NCBI GenBank assembly: GCA_964245825.1
Contig: CAXTNT010000002.1
Location: 223,728 to 287,727 of the forward strand
Reading direction: 5' to 3'
Length of the DNA stretch: 64,000 nucleotides
Origin: an uncultured bacterium
Lineage (GTDB): Bacteria > Actinomycetota > Actinomycetes > Mycobacteriales > CAJCIY01
This document shows positions 3,172-62,865 of the stretch, in pieces. Positions within the stretch are counted from its first letter, which is position 1. Each line of letters opens with the position of its first letter. The position numbers and the translations under genes were made by a program. Under the pieces are notes generated by a model, which saw nothing but the letters and a program-made list of their open reading frames with translations, searched no databases and had not been told where the DNA came from.

Positions 3172-3293
3172 GCACGCTCCACGGGTGCGGGCCGGCCTCC
3201 GGATGGTCCCGGCTGGGCCGAACCGTAGGGGTTCCGTGTGACAACCGTGTTGCGCGCACTGAACCAGGCGGCCAGTGGGTACGGACGTCCTGC

Positions 3294-4004
3294 ATGAGCC
3301 ACTCCCCGCCCCGCGAGCCCGAGGCCACCTGGGCACTGACGCTGCCCGTCGCCGACGAGCCGAGGGCGGTGGTCCTGGTCCTGCACGGGGGCAGGGCGGT
3401 CAGCCACGACCGGTCGAGCGGGCGCCACCTGTCCGCGGCCCGGATGGTCCCGGCCGCGCATGCGCTGCGCCGCGGGACGACGGAGCTGGACGCGGAGGTA
3501 CGACTGCTGCGCTACCGCTACCGGGGCTGGAATCGCACCGAGGCCTCGCCCGTAACCGACGCCCACTGGGCGCTGGCCCAGCTGCGCGAGCAGCGGCCGG
3601 GCCTGCCCATCGTGCTGGTCGGGCACTCGATGGGGGGCCGGGCTGCCCTGCGGGTGGCCGGTGACCCCTCGGTCGTCGGCGTCGTGGCCCTCGCGCCCTG
3701 GTGCGACCGCGGCGACCCGGTGTCCCAGCTCGCCGGCCAGCGGGTGCGGATCCTGCACGGCACCCGGGACCGCTGGACCAGCCCGGCAGCCTCCCAGGCC
3801 TTCGCACACGCCGCGACCGCCGTCGGCGCCGACGTGCGCTGGGTCGCCATGGGCCCGGTCGGGCACTTCATGCTCCGCGGGTACGGCCGGTGGCAGGAGC
3901 TGACCTCGTACCTGGTGCTCGACGCGCTGCTGGCGGCCGGGGTGGACGGCACGCCACAATCGGTACCGCGGCGAACCGGTGCGGCGCGGGCGACGAACGA
4001 CTAA
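3294..4004 (+). CDS. Alpha/beta-hydrolase fold protein (esterase/lipase-like)
   Basis: Nucleophile-elbow motif GHSMGG in a 236-aa ORF with downstream Asp/His candidates (ILHGTRDRW, GHFM). The start is uncertain. Confidence 0.7.
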   Translation: MSHSPPREPEATWALTLPVADEPRAVVLVLHGGRAVSHDRSSGRHLSAARMVPAAHALRRGTTELDAEVRLLRYRYRGWNRTEASPVTDAHWALAQLREQRPGLPIVLVGHSMGGRAALRVAGDPSVVGVVALAPWCDRGDPVSQLAGQRVRILHGTRDRWTSPAASQAFAHAATAVGADVRWVAMGPVGHFMLRGYGRWQELTSYLVLDALLAAGVDGTPQSVPRRTGAARATND

Positions 4005-4036
4005 GCAAGACCTTCCCTGCCGGCGAGAGGACCACC

Positions 4037-5305
4037 GTGAGCACCGACCACCCGCGCCCCACGGTCGCCGTGGTGGGCTCGGGCGTCGCCGGTCTCACCG
4101 CCGCCTGGGCGCTGCACACCAGCCGCGACGTCACGCTCTACGAGGCCGACGACCGGCTCGGCGGCCACGCGCACACCCACGAGCGGACCGGTCCCAGCGG
4201 TCGCACCGTCGCGGTCGACACCGGGTTCATCGTGCACAACCGGCGCACGTACCCGACTCTGCTGCGGCTGTTCGCCGACCTCGGCGTCCAGACCCAGGAG
4301 TCGGAGATGTCGATGTCCGTGCGCTGCGACGGGTGTGGGCTGGAGTACGCCGGGGCCAGGCGGCTGCCGGGACTGTTCGCGCAGGGCGTGCGGTCGCTGC
4401 GACCGCGCTACCTGCGGATGCTGGTCGAGATCAAGCGGTTCCACCGGCAGGCCACCGCGCTGCTCGCGCGGGAGGGCGACGAGATGGAGCTCGGCGAATT
4501 CCTCGACCGGGGCGGCTACTCGCGCTACTTCCGCACCCACTTCATGGTGCCGGTCGTCGCGGCCGTCTGGTCGACCGCGCCGTCGCAGGCGTTGCGGTAC
4601 CCGGCCCGCTACCTGCTCTCGTTCCTGGACAACCACGGGATGCTGACCGTCACCGGGTCGCCAACCTGGCGCACGGTCGTCGGCGGCTCCGGTACGTATG
4701 TGGAGCGCGTCGCCAAGGAGCTCGCGGCGGTCCGCACGTCGGCGCCGGTGACCGCCGTCCGGCGCGGCCTCGACCACGTCGAGATCACCGCCGACGGGCG
4801 CAGCGAGTCCTACGACGCCGTGGTGATCGCGACCCACCCGCACCAGGCGCTCGCGCTGCTGGCAGACCCCACGGCGGCAGAGACCGAGCTGCTCGGCGCG
4901 ATCACGTACACGGTGAACGACACCGTGCTGCACGACGACACCTCGATCCTGCCGACCGCCCCCGGCGCGGCGGCGTCCTGGAACGTCCGGATCGCCGGCT
5001 GCGGCGCGGACGAGGACGCGGTGCTGGTCAGCTACGACATGAACCGGCTGCAGCGCCTCGACACCCCGGACCGGTACGTGGTGAGCCTCAACGCCGACGG
5101 CCGCATCGACGACGCGCGCGTGCTGGCGCGGATGACCTACGAGCACCCGCTCTACACGACCGCCTCGGTCGCGGCGCAGCGTCGGCTGCCCGAGATCACC
5201 ACCGGCCGGACCGCGTTCGCCGGCGCCTACCACGGCTGGGGCTTCCACGAGGACGGCGCCCTTTCGGGGCTACGCGCGGCCGAGTCGCTCGGGGCGACGT
5301 GGTGA
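4037..5305 (+). CDS. NAD(P)/FAD-dependent oxidoreductase (amine-oxidase-like Rossmann flavoprotein) of the cfa/DUF1365 cluster
   Basis: GTG start preceded by a gagagga RBS. It carries the dinucleotide-binding motif VAVVGSGVAGLTAAWAL...LYEADDRLGGHAHTHE and is 422 aa. The 5' part of the 534-aa ORF overlaps the hydrolase in another frame. Confidence 0.8.
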   Translation: MSTDHPRPTVAVVGSGVAGLTAAWALHTSRDVTLYEADDRLGGHAHTHERTGPSGRTVAVDTGFIVHNRRTYPTLLRLFADLGVQTQESEMSMSVRCDGCGLEYAGARRLPGLFAQGVRSLRPRYLRMLVEIKRFHRQATALLAREGDEMELGEFLDRGGYSRYFRTHFMVPVVAAVWSTAPSQALRYPARYLLSFLDNHGMLTVTGSPTWRTVVGGSGTYVERVAKELAAVRTSAPVTAVRRGLDHVEITADGRSESYDAVVIATHPHQALALLADPTAAETELLGAITYTVNDTVLHDDTSILPTAPGAAASWNVRIAGCGADEDAVLVSYDMNRLQRLDTPDRYVVSLNADGRIDDARVLARMTYEHPLYTTASVAAQRRLPEITTGRTAFAGAYHGWGFHEDGALSGLRAAESLGATW

Positions 5306-11397: not shown

Positions 11398-11470
11398 GGG
11401 CCGTTAGCTCAACTGGCAGAGCAGCGGACTTTTAATCCGCGGGTTCTGGGTTCGACCCCCAGGCGGCCCA
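11398..11470 (+). tRNA. tRNA-Lys (anticodon UUU)
   Basis: GGGCCGTTAGCTCAACTGGCAGAGCAGCGGACTTTTAATCCGCGGGTTCTGGGTTCGACCCCCAGGCGGCCCA. It has a 7-bp acceptor stem (with one G-U pair), a D-loop, an anticodon loop cTTTTaa and a T-arm GGTTCGA. CCA is not fully encoded. Confidence 0.9.
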
Positions 11471-11496
11471 CCTACCGAAGGCCCACCTACCGAAGG
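11467..11496. repeat. 15-nt perfect tandem direct repeat (cccacctaccgaagg x2) overlapping the tRNA-Lys 3' end; att-core-like duplication
   Basis: Read directly; the first copy contains the last nucleotides of the tRNA acceptor stem. Confidence 0.8.
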
Positions 11497-11858
11497 TCAA
11501 CAGGCCCACTCTTACTGTGCGGGTACACCTGCCGCTTGACTGTGCTTCGGCTCATGCTTGACGCCTGATTCGGCCGTTCGTCGACACCCAGGGAGACCAG
11601 CGTGGCTGAGCAGAGGCATTGCTTCTGCTGCACCGTCGTCGACGCCAGCCAGTGACGTCCCCTGTGGTGGTCTAGCTCCTCGGGTCTCACGGAGTTGGTG
11701 ACCACGTGCGCTGTGGCCAGCGTGTGATGGTCAGCGAGACCACGCCAATGGTTCTCGCGGAAGGACACAGAGAGACCAGTGACGCCGTGTCCCATGCAGG
11801 CGTCTCCTTGTTATTGGCATCATGTGAGACCGAGCTGTCTACCGTCAGCAGTCGGCAA

Positions 11859-12566
11859 CTAAGGATCCTGTTCTCTATCCCGTGTTGCATGTCTTGCCGC
11901 TGCGTCAAGAAGGGTTTGTCTGATCTGAGCCCGACGAAGGTTCTCGGCGCTGTCACCCTCAACTGACGTTGATAGCCCTTGTGTTTGAAACGGGCCACCC
12001 TCGACGATCATCTCACGGTGGGGTGCAGGTTCGAGGCTGGCGTCGTACTTGCCCCGTTCGCTCTCCAGTCTCAGCACGATTATGTCTTTGACGGGTGCGG
12101 GCCAGACCTGAAAGAGGTACCTCTCAATGATGGGGTCGGGCGGCATCATCTGGTCGTCCTCGTTCTCGTACTCCTCAGTCATCACGACGCCGTCGTAATT
12201 TGCGTCTCGACCCCGAGCATGGACGCGGATGCGGTACGTACCGGGCCCGGCGGGACTCAGAACCGGGAACTCGTCGTCAACGTCCATGCCAAGCGCAGCG
12301 AAGCCGAGATCACCGGACGGTACCTCGATGCTCGCCTCGACGATGTCTTCCCAATCACCAGCATCTAGATCGGTCGGCGCGCTGGCGAGCACGTGCACAT
12401 CGACCCCGACAGGGCCAGCTGCTATGCCCGTGTTTATGTAGAGCGAGTGGGGAGAGACCCCGACTAACCCGTTGCCCGAAGTATCAGCCCAGGGAAAGGG
12501 AGCTTCCATGACGTCCCCGATGTAGAACTGGTGGTAGTCAACCGGAACTGTGCCCATGGGTTCCAT
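11859..12566 (-). CDS. Hypothetical acidic protein encoded in the lower-GC islet
   Basis: A 235-aa ORF, strongly acidic (D/E-rich), with non-repetitive protein-like composition. It lies in DNA of visibly lower GC than its surroundings. No recognisable family. Confidence 0.5.
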   Translation of the reverse strand: MEPMGTVPVDYHQFYIGDVMEAPFPWADTSGNGLVGVSPHSLYINTGIAAGPVGVDVHVLASAPTDLDAGDWEDIVEASIEVPSGDLGFAALGMDVDDEFPVLSPAGPGTYRIRVHARGRDANYDGVVMTEEYENEDDQMMPPDPIIERYLFQVWPAPVKDIIVLRLESERGKYDASLEPAPHREMIVEGGPFQTQGLSTSVEGDSAENLRRAQIRQTLLDAAARHATRDREQDP

Positions 12567-18525: not shown

Positions 18526-19485
18526 ATGGCGCAGGTGCTCGACAACGACAGCGCATCGCCCGCGCTGACCGAAGGGTTCGAGGCGACCATCGCCCGGGAC
18601 CGCCGGATCGAGCCCCGCGACTGGATGCCCGAGGCGTACCGGAAGACCATGATCCGCCAGATCGCGCAGCACGCGCACTCGGAGATCATCGGCATGCAAC
18701 CCGAGGGCAACTGGATCACCCGCGCACCCTCCCTGCGGCGCAAGGCGATCCTGCTGGCCAAGGTCCAGGACGAGGCCGGACACGGCATGTACCTCTACTC
18801 CGCCGCCGAGACCCTCGGCGCCGACCGCGCCGACCTCACCGACAAGCTGGTGCACGGCCGGCAGAAGTACTCCTCGATCTTCAACTACCCCGCCCTCAGC
18901 TACGCCGACGTCGGCGTCATCGGCTGGCTCGTCGACGGCGCAGCGATCTGCAACCAGGTCCCGCTGTGTCGCAGCAGCTACGGCCCGTACGCCCGCGCCA
19001 TGGTCCGCATCTGCAAGGAGGAGTCCTTCCACCAGCGGCAGGGCTACGAGCTGCTGCTGACGATGATGCGCGGGACGGCGGCCCAGCGGGCCATGGTCCA
19101 GGCCGCGGTCGACCGCTTCTGGTGGCCGTCGCTGATGATGTTCGGGCCGCCTGACGAGGCGTCGCCGAACACGGCGCAGTCGATGGCCTGGGGCGTGAAG
19201 CGGCACACCAACGACGAGCTGCGGCAGCGGTTCGTGGACATGTCCGTCCCGCAGGCCGAGCAGCTCGGCGTCACCCTCCCCGACCCCGCGCTGCGCTGGA
19301 ACGACGAGCGGGGCAGCTACGACTTCGGGGCGGTCGACTGGGCCGAGTTCGACGCCGTGGTCAGGGGCGACGGCCCCTGCAACGCCCAGCGCGTCGCGCA
19401 CCGCAAGGCGGCGCATGACGACGGCGCGTGGGTACGGGCGGCCGCCAGTGCGCACGCCGCGAAGACGCAGGGGGCGAGACGATGA
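18526..19485 (+). CDS. paaA: 1,2-phenylacetyl-CoA epoxidase subunit A
   Basis: A di-iron monooxygenase subunit with the typical PaaA sequence ([25 protein letters not shown]). Confidence 0.9.
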
Positions 19486-19522
19486 GTGCGCACGCCGCGA
19501 AGGCGCAGGGGGCGGGCCGGTG
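19447..19522. repeat. 38-bp imperfect tandem duplication spanning the paaA stop and paaB start
   Basis: agtgcgcacgccgcgaagacgcagggggcgagacgatg / agtgcgcacgccgcgaaggcgcagggggcgggccggtg. Copy 1 ends at the paaA TGA and copy 2 ends in the paaB GTG. Confidence 0.85.
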
Positions 19523-19882
19523 AGCGAGCTCGCGGCGGAGGGCGGCCACGGCGCCGTGCCGCTCACCGGCATTCCCGTTGCGCCGCAGGCAGCTGCGGTG
19601 CGTTCCGACTGGCCGCTGTACGAGGTGTTCCTGCGCGGCAAGCGGGGCCTCAACCACGTGCACGTCGGGTCGCTGCATGCCGCCGACCCGGTGATGGCGC
19701 TGCACCATGCCCGCGACCTGTACACCCGCCGCAACGAGGGCGTCAGCATCTGGGTCGTCCCGAGCGCGGCCATCACGGCCAGCAGCCCCGACGAGAAGGA
19801 CCCGTTCTTCGCCCCGGCGGCCGACAAGGTCTATCGGCACCCGACGTTCTACGTCATCCCCGACGACGTCCCGCACATGTGA
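19520..19882 (+). CDS. paaB: 1,2-phenylacetyl-CoA epoxidase subunit B
   Basis: A PaaB-family small subunit (WPLYEVFLRGKRGLNHVHVGSLHAADPVMALHHARDLYTRR). The GTG start is created by the second copy of a 38-bp tandem duplication. Confidence 0.85.
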   Translation: MSELAAEGGHGAVPLTGIPVAPQAAAVRSDWPLYEVFLRGKRGLNHVHVGSLHAADPVMALHHARDLYTRRNEGVSIWVVPSAAITASSPDEKDPFFAPAADKVYRHPTFYVIPDDVPHM

Positions 19883-30481: not shown

Positions 30482-31879
30482 TCAACCCGACGCCGCGCGG
30501 AGTCGGGCCGCCGCGCACAGCGCAGGCAACTGCGTCACCTCCTCGTCGGCCTCGTGTACGTCGCGGTCCCGCAGGGCGGCTCGCATCCTCGGCCCGGCGG
30601 TGTCCAGGTGCACCGTGGCCAGCCGCAGCCGTCGCTGCACCGGACCCTGCGTCCGCCGGATGCTCTGCACCTTCTCTAGCGGCACCCAGTGGCTGACCCG
30701 GCGCAGCCGGCCGCTGCAGGTGGCGACGCAGCTCGCGTTTCTTCCGACCGACAGCCGGTGGTAGCTCAGCGGTGCCTTCCAGCGGGCCCGGCCCGGCGCC
30801 TTGACCTGGGTCACCGCGAGGTCCTGCAGGACCAGGCCCATCACCTGGTACGCCTGCGCGTAGCTGCCGACAGGCAACAGTGCCCGCCGCCGTGAGCCCT
30901 GGGCGCCGTCCTCCTGGCGGCTGCGCTTGCCCGCGACCGCCGCCTCGACGCGGCACCACCCGAAAGGCCGCCACAGCAGCGGTTCCACCACGCGCAGCGC
31001 CTGTACCCGACCTGGCGGCAGGAGCTCGGTGGTGGTCTGGATCAACCCCGACCGTAGCTCCAGGCCCCGGCCCGACCGGAGCACGGTCAGGTGGAACTCT
31101 CCGTTGAAGCGGCGCCACAGCGCGGTGCCGAGCCCGATCAGGAAGACCGCGCCACTCCCGACCAGGGCACCTGCGGCGGCTGGGCTGAAGACGGCGGTGA
31201 CGAGGACGGCGGTGAGGTAGAGCGCCGCGAACAGTCCGCTCACGCTCAACAAGAGCGAGGCGACGAGCCGGCCGGCAGCCACGCGCAGGACGAGGGCGCC
31301 CGCCTCGCCCGGTGCCGCGGTGGCGGCTGACGCGGTGGCGGCTGGTGCGGTGGCGGCTGGTGCGGTGGCGGCTGGTGCGGCGCCGGCTGGTGCGGTGCCG
31401 GCAGTCGTGGCGCCGGCGTGTGCGGGCAGTGCCAGCAGCTGTTCGCGCAGCGCGCGCGCGTCGGCGTTCGGCAGGCAGGCGAGTCGGCCTTTGCCGCTGC
31501 CGCCGGCCATCCGCAGCCGCAGCTCGGCCAGGCCCAGCACCCGGGCCAGGCCGGTCTGCACCACGTCGATGGCCTGGACCTGACGGAGCGGATAGCGCTG
31601 GCTGCTGCGCCGGAGCAGGCCTGTCTCGATGCGCAGGTCGGCGCCCTCGACCCGCCACCGCGTCACCAGCCAGGAGACGACGCCGGCGAGCAGGGCGATC
31701 CCGACCCCGGCCGCGTCGACGAGCAGTCCGGCGAGGTCCCGGTGGCTGGTGAGCAACCGCGGGATCGCGAGCACGAGCAGCAGGATCAGCGCCCGCCCAC
31801 CCCGTATCAGCGGAGAGAGGGGATGCAGCCGGTGCCACCCTTCGAGCCCGTCGCCGGACGGCGCAGGCGGCGCGGTCAC
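30482..31879 (-). CDS. YdbT-like membrane protein with repeated bacterial PH (bPH_2) domains
   Basis: A GTG start overlapping the YdbS stop (GTGA). It has TM hairpins alternating with three bPH-like modules, plus an internal Ala/Thr/Pro linker encoded by 15-bp tandem repeats. Confidence 0.7.
   Translation of the reverse strand: MTAPPAPSGDGLEGWHRLHPLSPLIRGGRALILLLVLAIPRLLTSHRDLAGLLVDAAGVGIALLAGVVSWLVTRWRVEGADLRIETGLLRRSSQRYPLRQVQAIDVVQTGLARVLGLAELRLRMAGGSGKGRLACLPNADARALREQLLALPAHAGATTAGTAPAGAAPAATAPAATAPAATASAATAAPGEAGALVLRVAAGRLVASLLLSVSGLFAALYLTAVLVTAVFSPAAAGALVGSGAVFLIGLGTALWRRFNGEFHLTVLRSGRGLELRSGLIQTTTELLPPGRVQALRVVEPLLWRPFGWCRVEAAVAGKRSRQEDGAQGSRRRALLPVGSYAQAYQVMGLVLQDLAVTQVKAPGRARWKAPLSYHRLSVGRNASCVATCSGRLRRVSHWVPLEKVQSIRRTQGPVQRRLRLATVHLDTAGPRMRAALRDRDVHEADEEVTQLPALCAAARLRAASG
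31316..31410. repeat. In-frame tandem repeat of a 15-bp unit (gcggtggcggctggt, ~6 copies with variants) inside the YdbT-like gene
   Basis: Read directly; it encodes the (TAPAA)n-like low-complexity linker. Confidence 0.8.
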
Positions 31880-61340: not shown

Positions 61341-61443
61341 GGCGTGGCCCTACCCCGCGCGGCGGTTGCCTGACCGGGTTGCGGCCCTCGATCGCGGGAG
61401 GTACCGTGGCAAACAAGTTGAGTGTTCAACCAGAGGAGACGAC

Positions 61444-61956
61444 ATGGGCGTACGCCGGCTGAACCACGCGGTGCTGTACGTGCGCGACGTCGCCCGCAGC
61501 GTCGCCTTCTACCGTGACGTGCTGGGCTTCCGGGCGGTGGTCGAGCTGCCCGGCGCCGCGTTCCTGCAGGCGGCGGACTCCACCAACGACCACGACCTCG
61601 GGCTGTTCGAGATCGGGGCCGCCGCCGAGTCCTCGGGTGCCGGCCGCGGCCGCGTCGGCCTCTACCACCTCGCCTGGGAGGTCGACACCCTGCAGGCGCT
61701 CGCGGAGACCGCCGAACGGCTCGAGGCGGCGGGTGCGTTGGTCGGCGCCAGCGACCACGCGGCGACCAAGTCGCTGTACGCCCACGACCCCGACGGCCTC
61801 GAGTTCGAGGTGTGCTGGGTGCTCCCCGCCGAGCACGTCACCGACGCCGTCCGCGCGGCCGCGGTCGGCCGGCCGCTGCCGCTCGACCTCCGCCGGGAGA
61901 TCGCCACGTTCGGCGCACTGACGCCGGGCGGCATCGGCGTGTCCGTCCCGGCCTGA
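61444..61956 (+). CDS. VOC-family protein (glyoxalase/bleomycin-resistance/dioxygenase fold)
   Basis: RBS gaggag precedes the ATG. It shows a tandem beta-alpha-beta-beta-beta module pattern (RLNHAVLYVRDVARSVAFYRDVLGF ... GLYHLAWEVD). Confidence 0.7.
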   Translation: MGVRRLNHAVLYVRDVARSVAFYRDVLGFRAVVELPGAAFLQAADSTNDHDLGLFEIGAAAESSGAGRGRVGLYHLAWEVDTLQALAETAERLEAAGALVGASDHAATKSLYAHDPDGLEFEVCWVLPAEHVTDAVRAAAVGRPLPLDLRREIATFGALTPGGIGVSVPA

Positions 61957-62022
61957 CCTGCGCCCGCCACGACGGTTACCGTCGTCCCGGCCTGACCTGC
62001 GCCCGCCACGACGGTTACCGTC
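61944..62022. repeat. Perfect 39-bp tandem duplication (gtcccggcctgacctgcgcccgccacgacggttaccgtc x2) spanning the VOC stop and the start of the next gene
   Basis: Read directly; copy 1 is at 61944-61982 and copy 2 at 61983-62021. Confidence 0.9.
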
Positions 62023-62027
62023 GTCCC

Positions 62028-62417
62028 ATGCTCCGGCTCGCGCGCAGCCCCCGCTGGGTCGGCGCCCTCGCGGTGGCGGTGCTCGCGTCCGTCGTCTGCG
62101 CGCTGCTCGGCCGGTGGCAGTGGGACCGCAGCCAGTCCGCCGGCGGCGACCTGCAGAACCTCGCGTACGCCTTCAACTGGTGGCTGTTCTCCGCGCTCTG
62201 CCTCGGGGTCTGGGGCAAGGCGCTGCGCGAGGAGACCAGCAGGCTTGCCGACCCGGACGCGGAGCCGGTCGGGGTCGCGGGGGTCGCGGGTCGGCAGCGT
62301 CCGCCCGCCGTGGTCACGGCCGCCGCGATGGGCCACGAGGTCGACCCCGAGGTCGCGGAGTGGAACGACTGGCTGGCGGAGCTCGCCAGTCGGCCCGCCC
62401 GCCGGGCGCATCCGTGA
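62028..62417 (+). CDS. SURF1-like mini-protein (TM1 with a GRWQWDR motif and a C-terminal TM with YAFNWW, lacking the central domain)
   Basis: A 129-aa ORF whose two ends resemble the N- and C-terminal TM regions of SURF1-family proteins (LGxWQxxR ... YAxQWFxFA); the ~150-aa periplasmic middle is absent. Confidence 0.4.
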   Translation: MLRLARSPRWVGALAVAVLASVVCALLGRWQWDRSQSAGGDLQNLAYAFNWWLFSALCLGVWGKALREETSRLADPDAEPVGVAGVAGRQRPPAVVTAAAMGHEVDPEVAEWNDWLAELASRPARRAHP

Positions 62418-62471
62418 CGGTCGCGCCGATCGGCCGGCCCGCCCGCAGGGCCCACCCGTGACGGTCGCGCC
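62397..62471. repeat. ~31-bp imperfect duplication (gcccgccgggcgcatccgtgacggtcgcgcc / gcccgcagggcccacccgtgacggtcgcgcc) bracketing a stop/start junction
   Basis: Copy 1 contains the TGA of the SURF1-like ORF. Copy 2 contains the GTG start (VTVAPERP...) of the DUF3817 gene. Confidence 0.8.
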
Positions 62472-62865
62472 CGAGCGCCCGGACTGGCCGCTGCGCGCGT
62501 ACCGCACGGTCGCGATCATCGTGGGCATCGGCCTGCCGATCCTGCTGGTGGGTGCGATCTACGGTCTGGCGACCGCGCACGGCGCCTCCGTGTCCAAGGC
62601 GGCCGGTCGGCCGACCGCGGTCGAGGTGGTCGGGCCCATCCACGGCTTCCTGTACATCGCGCTGCTGCTGCTGGCCCTGACGCTGTCCTTCCGCGAGCGC
62701 TGGCCGATCGGGTTCACGCTGCTGGTGTGCCTGGCCGGCACGGTGCCCTTCGCGTCGTTCGTCGCCGAACGCGCGGTCACCCGGCGGGTACGAGGGCGGC
62801 GGCGGGGTCGGACTCGGGCGCCGGGCGGGGCGGCCGGTGCCGCCACGCATCCACCGAGAGCGTGA
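62458..62865 (+). CDS. DUF3817-family small membrane protein
   Basis: Three TM helices with the conserved GPIHGFLYIALLL block. The Arg-rich C-terminal tail is probably over-extended. Confidence 0.55.
   Translation: MTVAPERPDWPLRAYRTVAIIVGIGLPILLVGAIYGLATAHGASVSKAAGRPTAVEVVGPIHGFLYIALLLLALTLSFRERWPIGFTLLVCLAGTVPFASFVAERAVTRRVRGRRRGRTRAPGGAAGAATHPPRA

Follow-up and report, generated by a model that had tools for sequence, protein, structure and literature searches.

Mycobacterial interspersed repetitive units (MIRUs) are units of 40-100 bp, often in tandem, that lie between operon genes, contain an internal open reading frame (ORF) overlapping both neighbours and carry tetranucleotide end repeats (Supply et al. 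1997 Mol Microbiol 26:991, as described in PMC12548453, PMC3184786). Their ORFs are coupled at −4 spacing (PMC12548453, PMC3184786), and at 9 of the 12 classical MIRU loci the units measure 53 or 77 bp, that is, 2 modulo 3 (2 mod 3), the others being 51 and 54 bp, with one also given as 52 bp (PMC3558156). Related systems are the termination-reinitiation coupling of genes at −4/−1 overlaps, the short 'delivery' ORFs of synthetic bicistronic designs, and slippage tandem duplications of the minisatellite or variable-number tandem repeat (VNTR) type. Here, we analysed a stretch of 64,000 nucleotides (hereafter, the window) from an uncultured bacterium of the Mycobacteriales (contig CAXTNT010000002.1), in which two gene junctions, paaA/paaB (junction 1) and SURF1-like/DUF3817 (junction 3), each carry a tandem duplication over an NTGA stop/start overlap. 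At both junctions, a relay mini-ORF now fills the space between the two genes, starting on the upstream stop and stopping on the downstream start. A further duplication of 39 bp, between a VOC/glyoxalase gene and the SURF1-like gene, is of a separate kind. The features of the two junctions are as follows.

18526-19485, forward strand: paaA, 319 aa (Pfam PaaA_PaaC, E 8.6e-96; same 319-aa product on record)
19447-19484, forward strand: junction 1 copy A, 38 bp, encoding the present PaaA tail, with its final ATG at 19482-19484
19483-19485, forward strand: paaA stop TGA, at the end of repeat copy A
19485-19522, forward strand: junction 1 copy B, 38 bp, 34/38 identical to copy A
19482-19523, forward strand: relay mini-ORF 1, 13 codons, start on the paaA stop (ATGA), stop TGA 19521-19523 on the paaB start (GTGA)
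19520-19882, forward strand: paaB, 120 aa, GTG start (Pfam and NCBIfam PaaB; 120-aa product on record)
62028-62417, forward strand: small SURF1-like membrane protein gene, 129 aa (NCBIfam SURF1_Mycobac, N-terminal match only, below the cut-off; 129-aa product on record)
62391-62427, forward strand: junction 3 copy A, reading RPARRAHP and stop, GTGA, then cggtcgcgcc
62435-62471, forward strand: junction 3 copy B, period 44, 34/37 identical to copy A
62414-62461, forward strand: relay mini-ORF 2, 15 codons, GTG on the SURF1-like stop (GTGA 62414-62417), stop TGA 62459-62461 on the DUF3817 start (GTGA 62458-62461)
62458-62865, forward strand: DUF3817 membrane protein gene, 135 aa, GTG start (Pfam DUF3817, E 3e-20; 100% identical 135-aa protein P0001 on record)

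At junction 1, the paaA stop and the ATG ending copy A overlap as ATGA (19482-19485). Copy B repeats the PaaA tail, including SAHAAK, a motif conserved in the tails of relatives, and ends with the GTG (19520-19522) that starts paaB and overlaps the following TGA as GTGA (19520-19523). The spacer between the two genes measures 34 nt, i.e., the period of 38 minus 4, and a purine-rich AGGGGG lies 8 nt 5' of each start, that of mini-ORF 1 and that of paaB. The N-terminal extension of PaaB (...AEGGHGAVP...) is conserved in six relatives (L002, L007, L012, L032, L067 and L074), so the extension is coding and GTG 19520 a genuine start. Copy B keeps an ancestral-looking junction, ...ggggcgggccgGTGAgcga, as in the relative L099; since the L099 junction (...ggggcgggcggcGTGAgcga...) closely matches copy B, this copy appears to be the ancestral one, and it is copy A, now the tail of PaaA, that has diverged, including a GTG-to-ATG change. 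The first-pass annotation of this DNA had reported a 38-bp duplication at 19447-19522, which our comparison reproduces, and its remark that the genes involved have variable termini is borne out by the tails of PaaA and the N-termini of PaaB.

At junction 3, the SURF1-like protein ends in ...ELASRPARRAHP (final residues RPARRAHP; stop TGA 62415-62417), and mini-ORF 2, reading VTVAPIGRPARRAHP up to its stop, joins the first five residues of DUF3817 (VTVAP) to the last eight of the SURF1-like protein. The spacer of 40 nt again equals the period minus 4. All three differences between copies A and B are synonymous in the RPARRAHP frame, and at least two of them are placed in the mini-ORF copy by the outgroup L184; indels make it hard to place the ends of the 44-bp unit. 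A duplication had been noted here before as about 31 bp at 62397-62471; it exists, at the longer period and with the copies listed above. The same source had the second copy supplying the downstream start, which is true of both junctions, and had proposed a shared core, ccGTGA(c/g)cg, which does not hold up, because copy A of junction 1 reads cgATGAgtg and only the NTGA overlap is common to the two junctions.

Gene identities were obtained by Pfam and NCBIfam searches. The public annotation record carries the same four products (PaaA, PaaB, SURF1-like and DUF3817 with 319, 120, 129 and 135 aa, respectively), and thus an independent annotation agrees on the gene ends. Self-comparison of the window (G+C 72.8%) at every offset from 18 to 150 returned only seven tandem-like matches, the top five being the following.

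1-107: period 52, perfect
19447-19541: period 38, 84% identity over 57 nt, 34/38 in the first unit
31317-31425: period 30, in-frame coding repeat, 86% identity
61944-62027: period 39, perfect
62391-62471: period 44, 34/37 identical

Using 20 second-order Markov random windows together with dinucleotide shuffles as the chance level, we found maximum tandem scores of 12-16 in the Markov windows against 28-55 for the observed matches, with the repeats of 38-, 39- and 44-bp period scoring 30, 45 and 28, respectively. Each of these three units is present in exactly two adjacent copies within the window, for an expectation of zero second copies under dinucleotide shuffling. The three repeats are real and lie far above chance, and chance similarity was rejected as their explanation.

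To read the ancestral state from relatives, we searched genomes with PaaA and metagenomes with PaaB, obtaining 80 loci from each search and, from the two together, about 137 readable paaA/paaB junctions. The genes overlap by 4 nt (NTGA) in about 103 of these junctions, by 1 nt in about 17 and by a longer stretch in a few; palindromic inserts take up the spacer in three, and in four lineages, including the window, the spacer is a relay mini-ORF. Within the 90%-identity PaaB cluster, the overlap is retained by four more lineages (P0054, P0048, P0059 and P0052). The SURF1-like/DUF3817 pair has an NTGA overlap in all four relatives that carry SURF1-like orthologs (L082, L184, L187 and L188), one of which, L188, shares the whole VOC / SURF1-like / DUF3817 / EamA synteny. 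Since orthologous junctions take the NTGA form and each spacer in the window is 4 nt shorter than the period, the arrangement in the window is derived and arose by local duplication; the comparison of orthologous junctions that the first-pass annotation had called for thus finds mostly undisturbed 4-nt overlaps. In-frame repeats also occur in the PaaA tails of L066, L075, L076 and L027. Among the sampled loci, L075 (about 3967-4030) and L135 (261 nt) have paaA/paaB spacers filled by long perfect inverted repeats, resembling repetitive extragenic palindromes, miniature inverted-repeat transposable elements or terminators, which is a different way to lose the overlap. Near position 1500 of L151, paaA and paaB are apparently fused in one frame with no stop, either a natural fusion or a sequencing error.

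The same relay architecture arose independently in other actinobacteria. In Myceligenerans salitolerans (L055, 3915-4045), the paaA/paaB junction holds three copies of AGCAGGAGGCGGCGTGA in perfect repeats spaced 50 and 77 nt, giving two successive mini-ORFs of 17 and 26 codons, each stopping on the next GTG; this junction is VNTR-like. In Sphaerisporangium rhizosphaerae (L027, 548-671, minus strand), three tandem 14-codon mini-ORFs (MTT...RR) of period 41 precede a TetR-family gene and copy its own 5' end, each stop overlapping the next ATG. L164 has a 20-bp duplication across the GTGA that opens the conserved part of PaaD, about 70 nt 3' of the paaC stop, and L097/L098 (spacing 41) and L107 (spacing 23) contain relay mini-ORFs with an eroded repeat. 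A separate 19-bp repeat (2.8 copies) occupies the untranslated paaB/paaC spacer of L055 at 4372-4425.

Relays were searched with a stricter window-only scan and an unbiased flank-identity scan for NTGA pairs with near-identical flanks, the latter covering 952 kb. Every case in the 952 kb that has a period other than a multiple of 3 and sits on a real start codon is 2 mod 3, and no junction-spanning duplication with a period of 1 mod 3 was found there; the two cases of 1 mod 3 are repeats of 19 bp, one in L055 and one in L070, both in untranslated DNA. Periods of 0 mod 3 lead to in-frame N-terminal extensions rather than relays (L175; SEKP repeats in L070). In L175, a 15-bp unit, GCCGCCAAGCACTGA, is present three times at paaA/paaB; the paaA frame reads AAKH and stop three times, and in the paaB frame, which starts inside paaA, the N-terminus is extended by three copies of PPSTE, making this the 0-mod-3 counterpart of the relay. 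Of the 18 tandem repeats found in relatives, 16 are in frame, with periods divisible by 3; the other two (period 41 in L027, period 19 in L055) occur at a gene start or between genes. A gene-call-free relay scan of all loci, based on G+C at third codon positions, was discarded as too noisy, since it missed the two known cases and picked the C-termini of real genes, and a third relay candidate in the window, at 3238-3294, proved spurious, being antisense to a real permease gene.

Set against MIRUs, the two junctions share four traits: a short unit inside an operon (here 38 and 44 bp, in two copies between co-directional genes, slightly below or at the lower size limit); a small ORF, with NTGA at both ends, overlapping the flanking stop and start; a tetranucleotide repeat on both sides; and the period arithmetic, in that the relay cases (38, 44, 41, 50, 77 and 20) are all 2 mod 3, like the MIRU units of 53 and 77 bp. 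However, MIRUs form some 40-50 related, dispersed copies per genome and are thought to be mobile, whereas within the 64-kb window each unit here has a match only in the DNA next to it; the inserted DNA is not foreign, being 89-92% identical to the end of the adjoining gene and containing SAHAAK and VTVAP; and the present units are found outside Mycobacterium. Since they are neither dispersed within the window nor foreign to their flanks, we do not class them as MIRUs and regard them instead as a variant of the MIRU arrangement that was generated locally. Their ancestral junctions are canonical NTGA overlaps within one operon, as in termination-reinitiation coupling at −4/−1 overlaps (Huber et al. 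2019, 2023; review PMC12548453), with PaaA and PaaB being subunits of one complex, and the duplicated junctions amount to two chained overlaps; the classical case has no intervening ORF, whereas coupling here, if kept, would pass through a relay of 13-15 codons. As in synthetic bicistronic designs (cited in PMC12548453), a short ORF whose stop overlaps the target start would deliver ribosomes, but those ORFs are engineered or lie upstream in leader regions, and the present ones are duplication by-products between two genes. From slippage tandem duplications, the units do not differ in mechanism: the copies are head-to-tail, orthologous sites hold a single copy, microhomology flanks two of the units (CGTCCC at the 39-bp unit; an imperfect in-phase repeat of 19 nt, 74% similar, at the 38-bp unit), some copies are perfect and recent and others older and diverged, and copy number varies in L055. 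What is peculiar is the position over a stop/start overlap and its consequence for the reading frame.

We therefore consider it likely that the two junction repeats are slippage duplications that survive by sparing both genes, that a period of 2 mod 3 probably keeps termination-reinitiation coupling in place, and that mutational bias explains part of the mod-3 pattern. In the most likely course of events, short and imperfect direct repeats lying in phase, at the Ala/Arg-rich end of the upstream gene and the beginning of the downstream gene, misaligned by slippage and produced a junction-spanning duplication that leaves the upstream gene complete, ending in copy A, and the downstream gene complete, starting from copy B. 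As both genes stay intact, such a duplication is tolerated at a junction, while the same event inside a gene is a frameshift and is removed; the duplication origin and the tolerance are both well supported. The start now orphaned on the upstream stop opens a mini-ORF of 13 or 15 codons that reads copy B in the old frame of the upstream gene; because the periods of 38 and 44 are both 2 mod 3, this orphan start is in frame with the copy B stop, and the mini-ORF ends exactly on the downstream start, forming a chain of two −4 overlaps. A ribosome leaving paaA or the SURF1-like gene could then reinitiate on the mini-ORF and afterwards on paaB or DUF3817, with coupling handed on through the two overlaps instead of being lost over a gap of 34-40 nt. 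We infer this relay function because coupling is almost abolished at an intergenic distance of about 20 nt (PMC10666635) and short ORFs are able to 'deliver' ribosomes at −4 spacing (PMC12548453). The proposal of the first-pass annotation, slippage that preserves translational coupling, agrees with this for two of its three repeats, in their orthologous 4-nt overlaps, local DNA and 2-mod-3 periods; the 39-bp repeat was wrongly grouped with them, and the coupling part is conditional here as well.

Several observations weigh against this reading. In 112 intact junctions, microhomologies that would give a period of 2 mod 3 exceed those giving 1 mod 3 by 1.3-fold (k=4-6) and 2.7-fold (k=7-8), because tails and heads are codon-periodic and their frames differ by −1, and under this microhomology null six events out of six have a p of roughly 0.03-0.15, a suggestive value that does not decide the matter. 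Within copy B, the downstream genes still have a Shine-Dalgarno (SD)-like sequence of their own and could initiate independently. Differences between the junction 1 copies include non-synonymous ones, and junction 1 has no strong RNA structure (folding z = +0.5 against shuffles; junction 3 gave −2.3 and the 39-bp region −1.9, from its palindrome, none of these values being counted as evidence). Among the relatives compared, none has more than 90% nucleotide identity by which to date the duplications. What the comparison establishes is the duplications, their origin from local DNA, the overlaps that preceded them, and the geometry of the relay with its recurrence in other lineages; slippage as the mechanism, translation of the mini-ORFs and the retained coupling are inferred.

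Some of these observations are what one would expect if the duplications were real and local but the mini-ORFs idle, with the downstream genes using their own ribosome-binding sites and the 2-mod-3 periods simply reflecting in-phase, codon-periodic microhomologies across a −1 frame junction. The microhomology census, the 19-nt in-phase repeat flanking the 38-bp unit, the AGGGGG still present 5' of paaB and the unconstrained PaaA tails, rich in in-frame repeats in many lineages, all agree with such a neutral by-product, which we regard as possible but unlikely. Finding no 1-mod-3 event among 6-8 is still fewer than this null predicts (p 0.01-0.15), and the exclusively synonymous differences at junction 3, at least two of them in the mini-ORF copy, likewise favour constraint, if weakly; moreover, an orphan start with an SD sequence on the upstream stop should be translated, so its frame would affect how the downstream start is reached. 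A MIRU-like mobile or dispersed repeat element that inserted at start codons and duplicated the 4-nt NTGA target would produce the same geometry, with ORF ends overlapping the neighbours and tetranucleotide direct repeats flanking the filled sites, and the unit sizes are similar (those of L055 are 50 and 77 bp). However, each 'insert' is 89-92% identical to the DNA directly 5' of it and encodes the neighbour's own conserved tail, and the two units lack mutual similarity and any further copy in the window, which makes such an insertion extremely unlikely.

An enzymatic process aimed at GTGA junctions, another suggestion of the first-pass annotation, would account for both events in the window falling on NTGA, but the breakpoints lie 14-35 nt from the NTGA and differ between events, the units share only NTGA and each copies its own flank, and two further duplications of the window, those of 39 bp and 52 bp, are in untranslated DNA and contain no start/stop overlap. 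Purifying selection alone predicts a concentration at junctions, given the 16 of 18 tandem repeats in relatives that are multiples of 3, and we find a sequence-specific process hardly credible. An assembly or sequencing artefact might be suspected from the perfect identity of the 39-bp repeat and of the 52-bp repeat at 1-107, and from the possibly metagenome-derived contig. The junction repeats, however, differ at 3-4 positions (8-10% divergence), which assembly error does not produce, the units are shorter than a read, and equivalent structures are present in independent assemblies, including the isolate genomes L027 and L055. Assembly error was rejected for the diverged repeats, and an artefact is very unlikely overall.

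Slippage duplication with retained coupling, if the relay is functional, would mean that operons can absorb frame-breaking insertions at junctions and still keep stoichiometric co-translation, and it would give a mechanism for some of the cases in which comparative studies see short overlaps repeatedly gained or lost (10.64898/2026.09.10.750558). If the relay is not functional, the finding is an ordinary one, slippage duplications where selection tolerates them. The period rule (2 mod 3, relay ORF; 0 mod 3, N-terminal extension; 1 mod 3, absent) would give a testable origin for MIRU-like elements. In practical terms, it would point to unannotated ORFs of 13-26 codons between genes and explain hypervariable C- and N-termini at such junctions. 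The broader proposition, that duplication over NTGA overlaps is a recurrent route to relay mini-ORFs in high-GC Actinomycetota, with selection keeping 2 mod 3 and MIRU-type elements as the amplified, dispersed end-state, is speculative, and we would sooner doubt it than adopt it. Beyond what we found described are the frame arithmetic, the independent recurrence in several actinobacterial lineages and the likeness to MIRUs; the events themselves are ordinary duplications, and the novelty is modest.

The 39-bp repeat lies in the following setting.

61438-61956 (start approximate), forward strand: VOC/glyoxalase gene (Pfam Glyoxalase, E 3e-17), with its stop TGA 61954-61956 within 39-bp copy 1
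61944-62027, forward strand: perfect 39-bp tandem duplication, 2.15 copies (61944-61982 and 61983-62021, then CGTCCC at 62022-62027)

This repeat, whose presence and perfect identity the first-pass annotation had recognised, probably arose separately from the two junction duplications, by recent slippage between two CGTCCC hexamers. The unit begins 10 nt 5' of the VOC stop and covers the entire ancestral 32-nt spacer; each copy opens with the hexamer, a third one follows the second copy, and these three sites are the signature of slippage between 6-bp microhomologies. The unit duplicates the VOC stop and an intergenic promoter-like region, without a start/stop overlap, and the VOC and SURF1-like genes never overlapped. 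The SURF1-like ATG at 62028 follows the third CGTCCC, 6 nt past the second full copy and hence outside the repeat, so that here the second copy does not supply the downstream start. The VOC ortholog in L188 terminates in ...GVSVPV. Both copies contain a 17-bp palindrome, ACGACGGTTACCGTCGT (61969-61985 and 62008-62024), which overlaps a −10-like TACCGT (61977-61982 and 62016-62021). The order GGTTACCGTC, 6 nt, start codon is conserved: L188/L189 have it, and L082 has it near-identically, as GGCTACCGTC. Actinobacterial −10 boxes of the form TANNNT and leaderless mRNAs are well known. On these sequence features, the repeat likely doubled the −10 element of a leaderless SURF1-like mRNA together with a putative operator, the palindrome. 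Promoter and terminator consensus scans, made with a tool that holds no model of actinobacterial promoters, gave no match at either region.

Elsewhere, the window contains further repeats. Altogether, it holds four tandem duplications of 38-52 bp in 64 kb, and the relatives' loci about five with periods that are not multiples of 3 in about 890 kb. The perfect 52-bp repeat at 1-107 (2.06 copies, period 1 mod 3) lies in lower-GC untranslated DNA 5' of a pirin gene (ATG 270) and may extend past the left window edge. In a coding region at 31317-31425, in-frame tandem repeats of 15/30/45 bp (GCGGTGGCGGCTGGT-like) amount to about 6-7 copies. An Rfam search of the window returned one tRNA as its sole match. 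The tRNA-Lys(TTT) gene at 11398-11472 is directly followed by a perfect 15-bp repeat of 2.1 copies, GGCCCACCTACCGAA (11465-11496), and then, within the region 11398-12500, by a stretch of 59-61% GC (window, 73%) that may represent an integration site or a small island.

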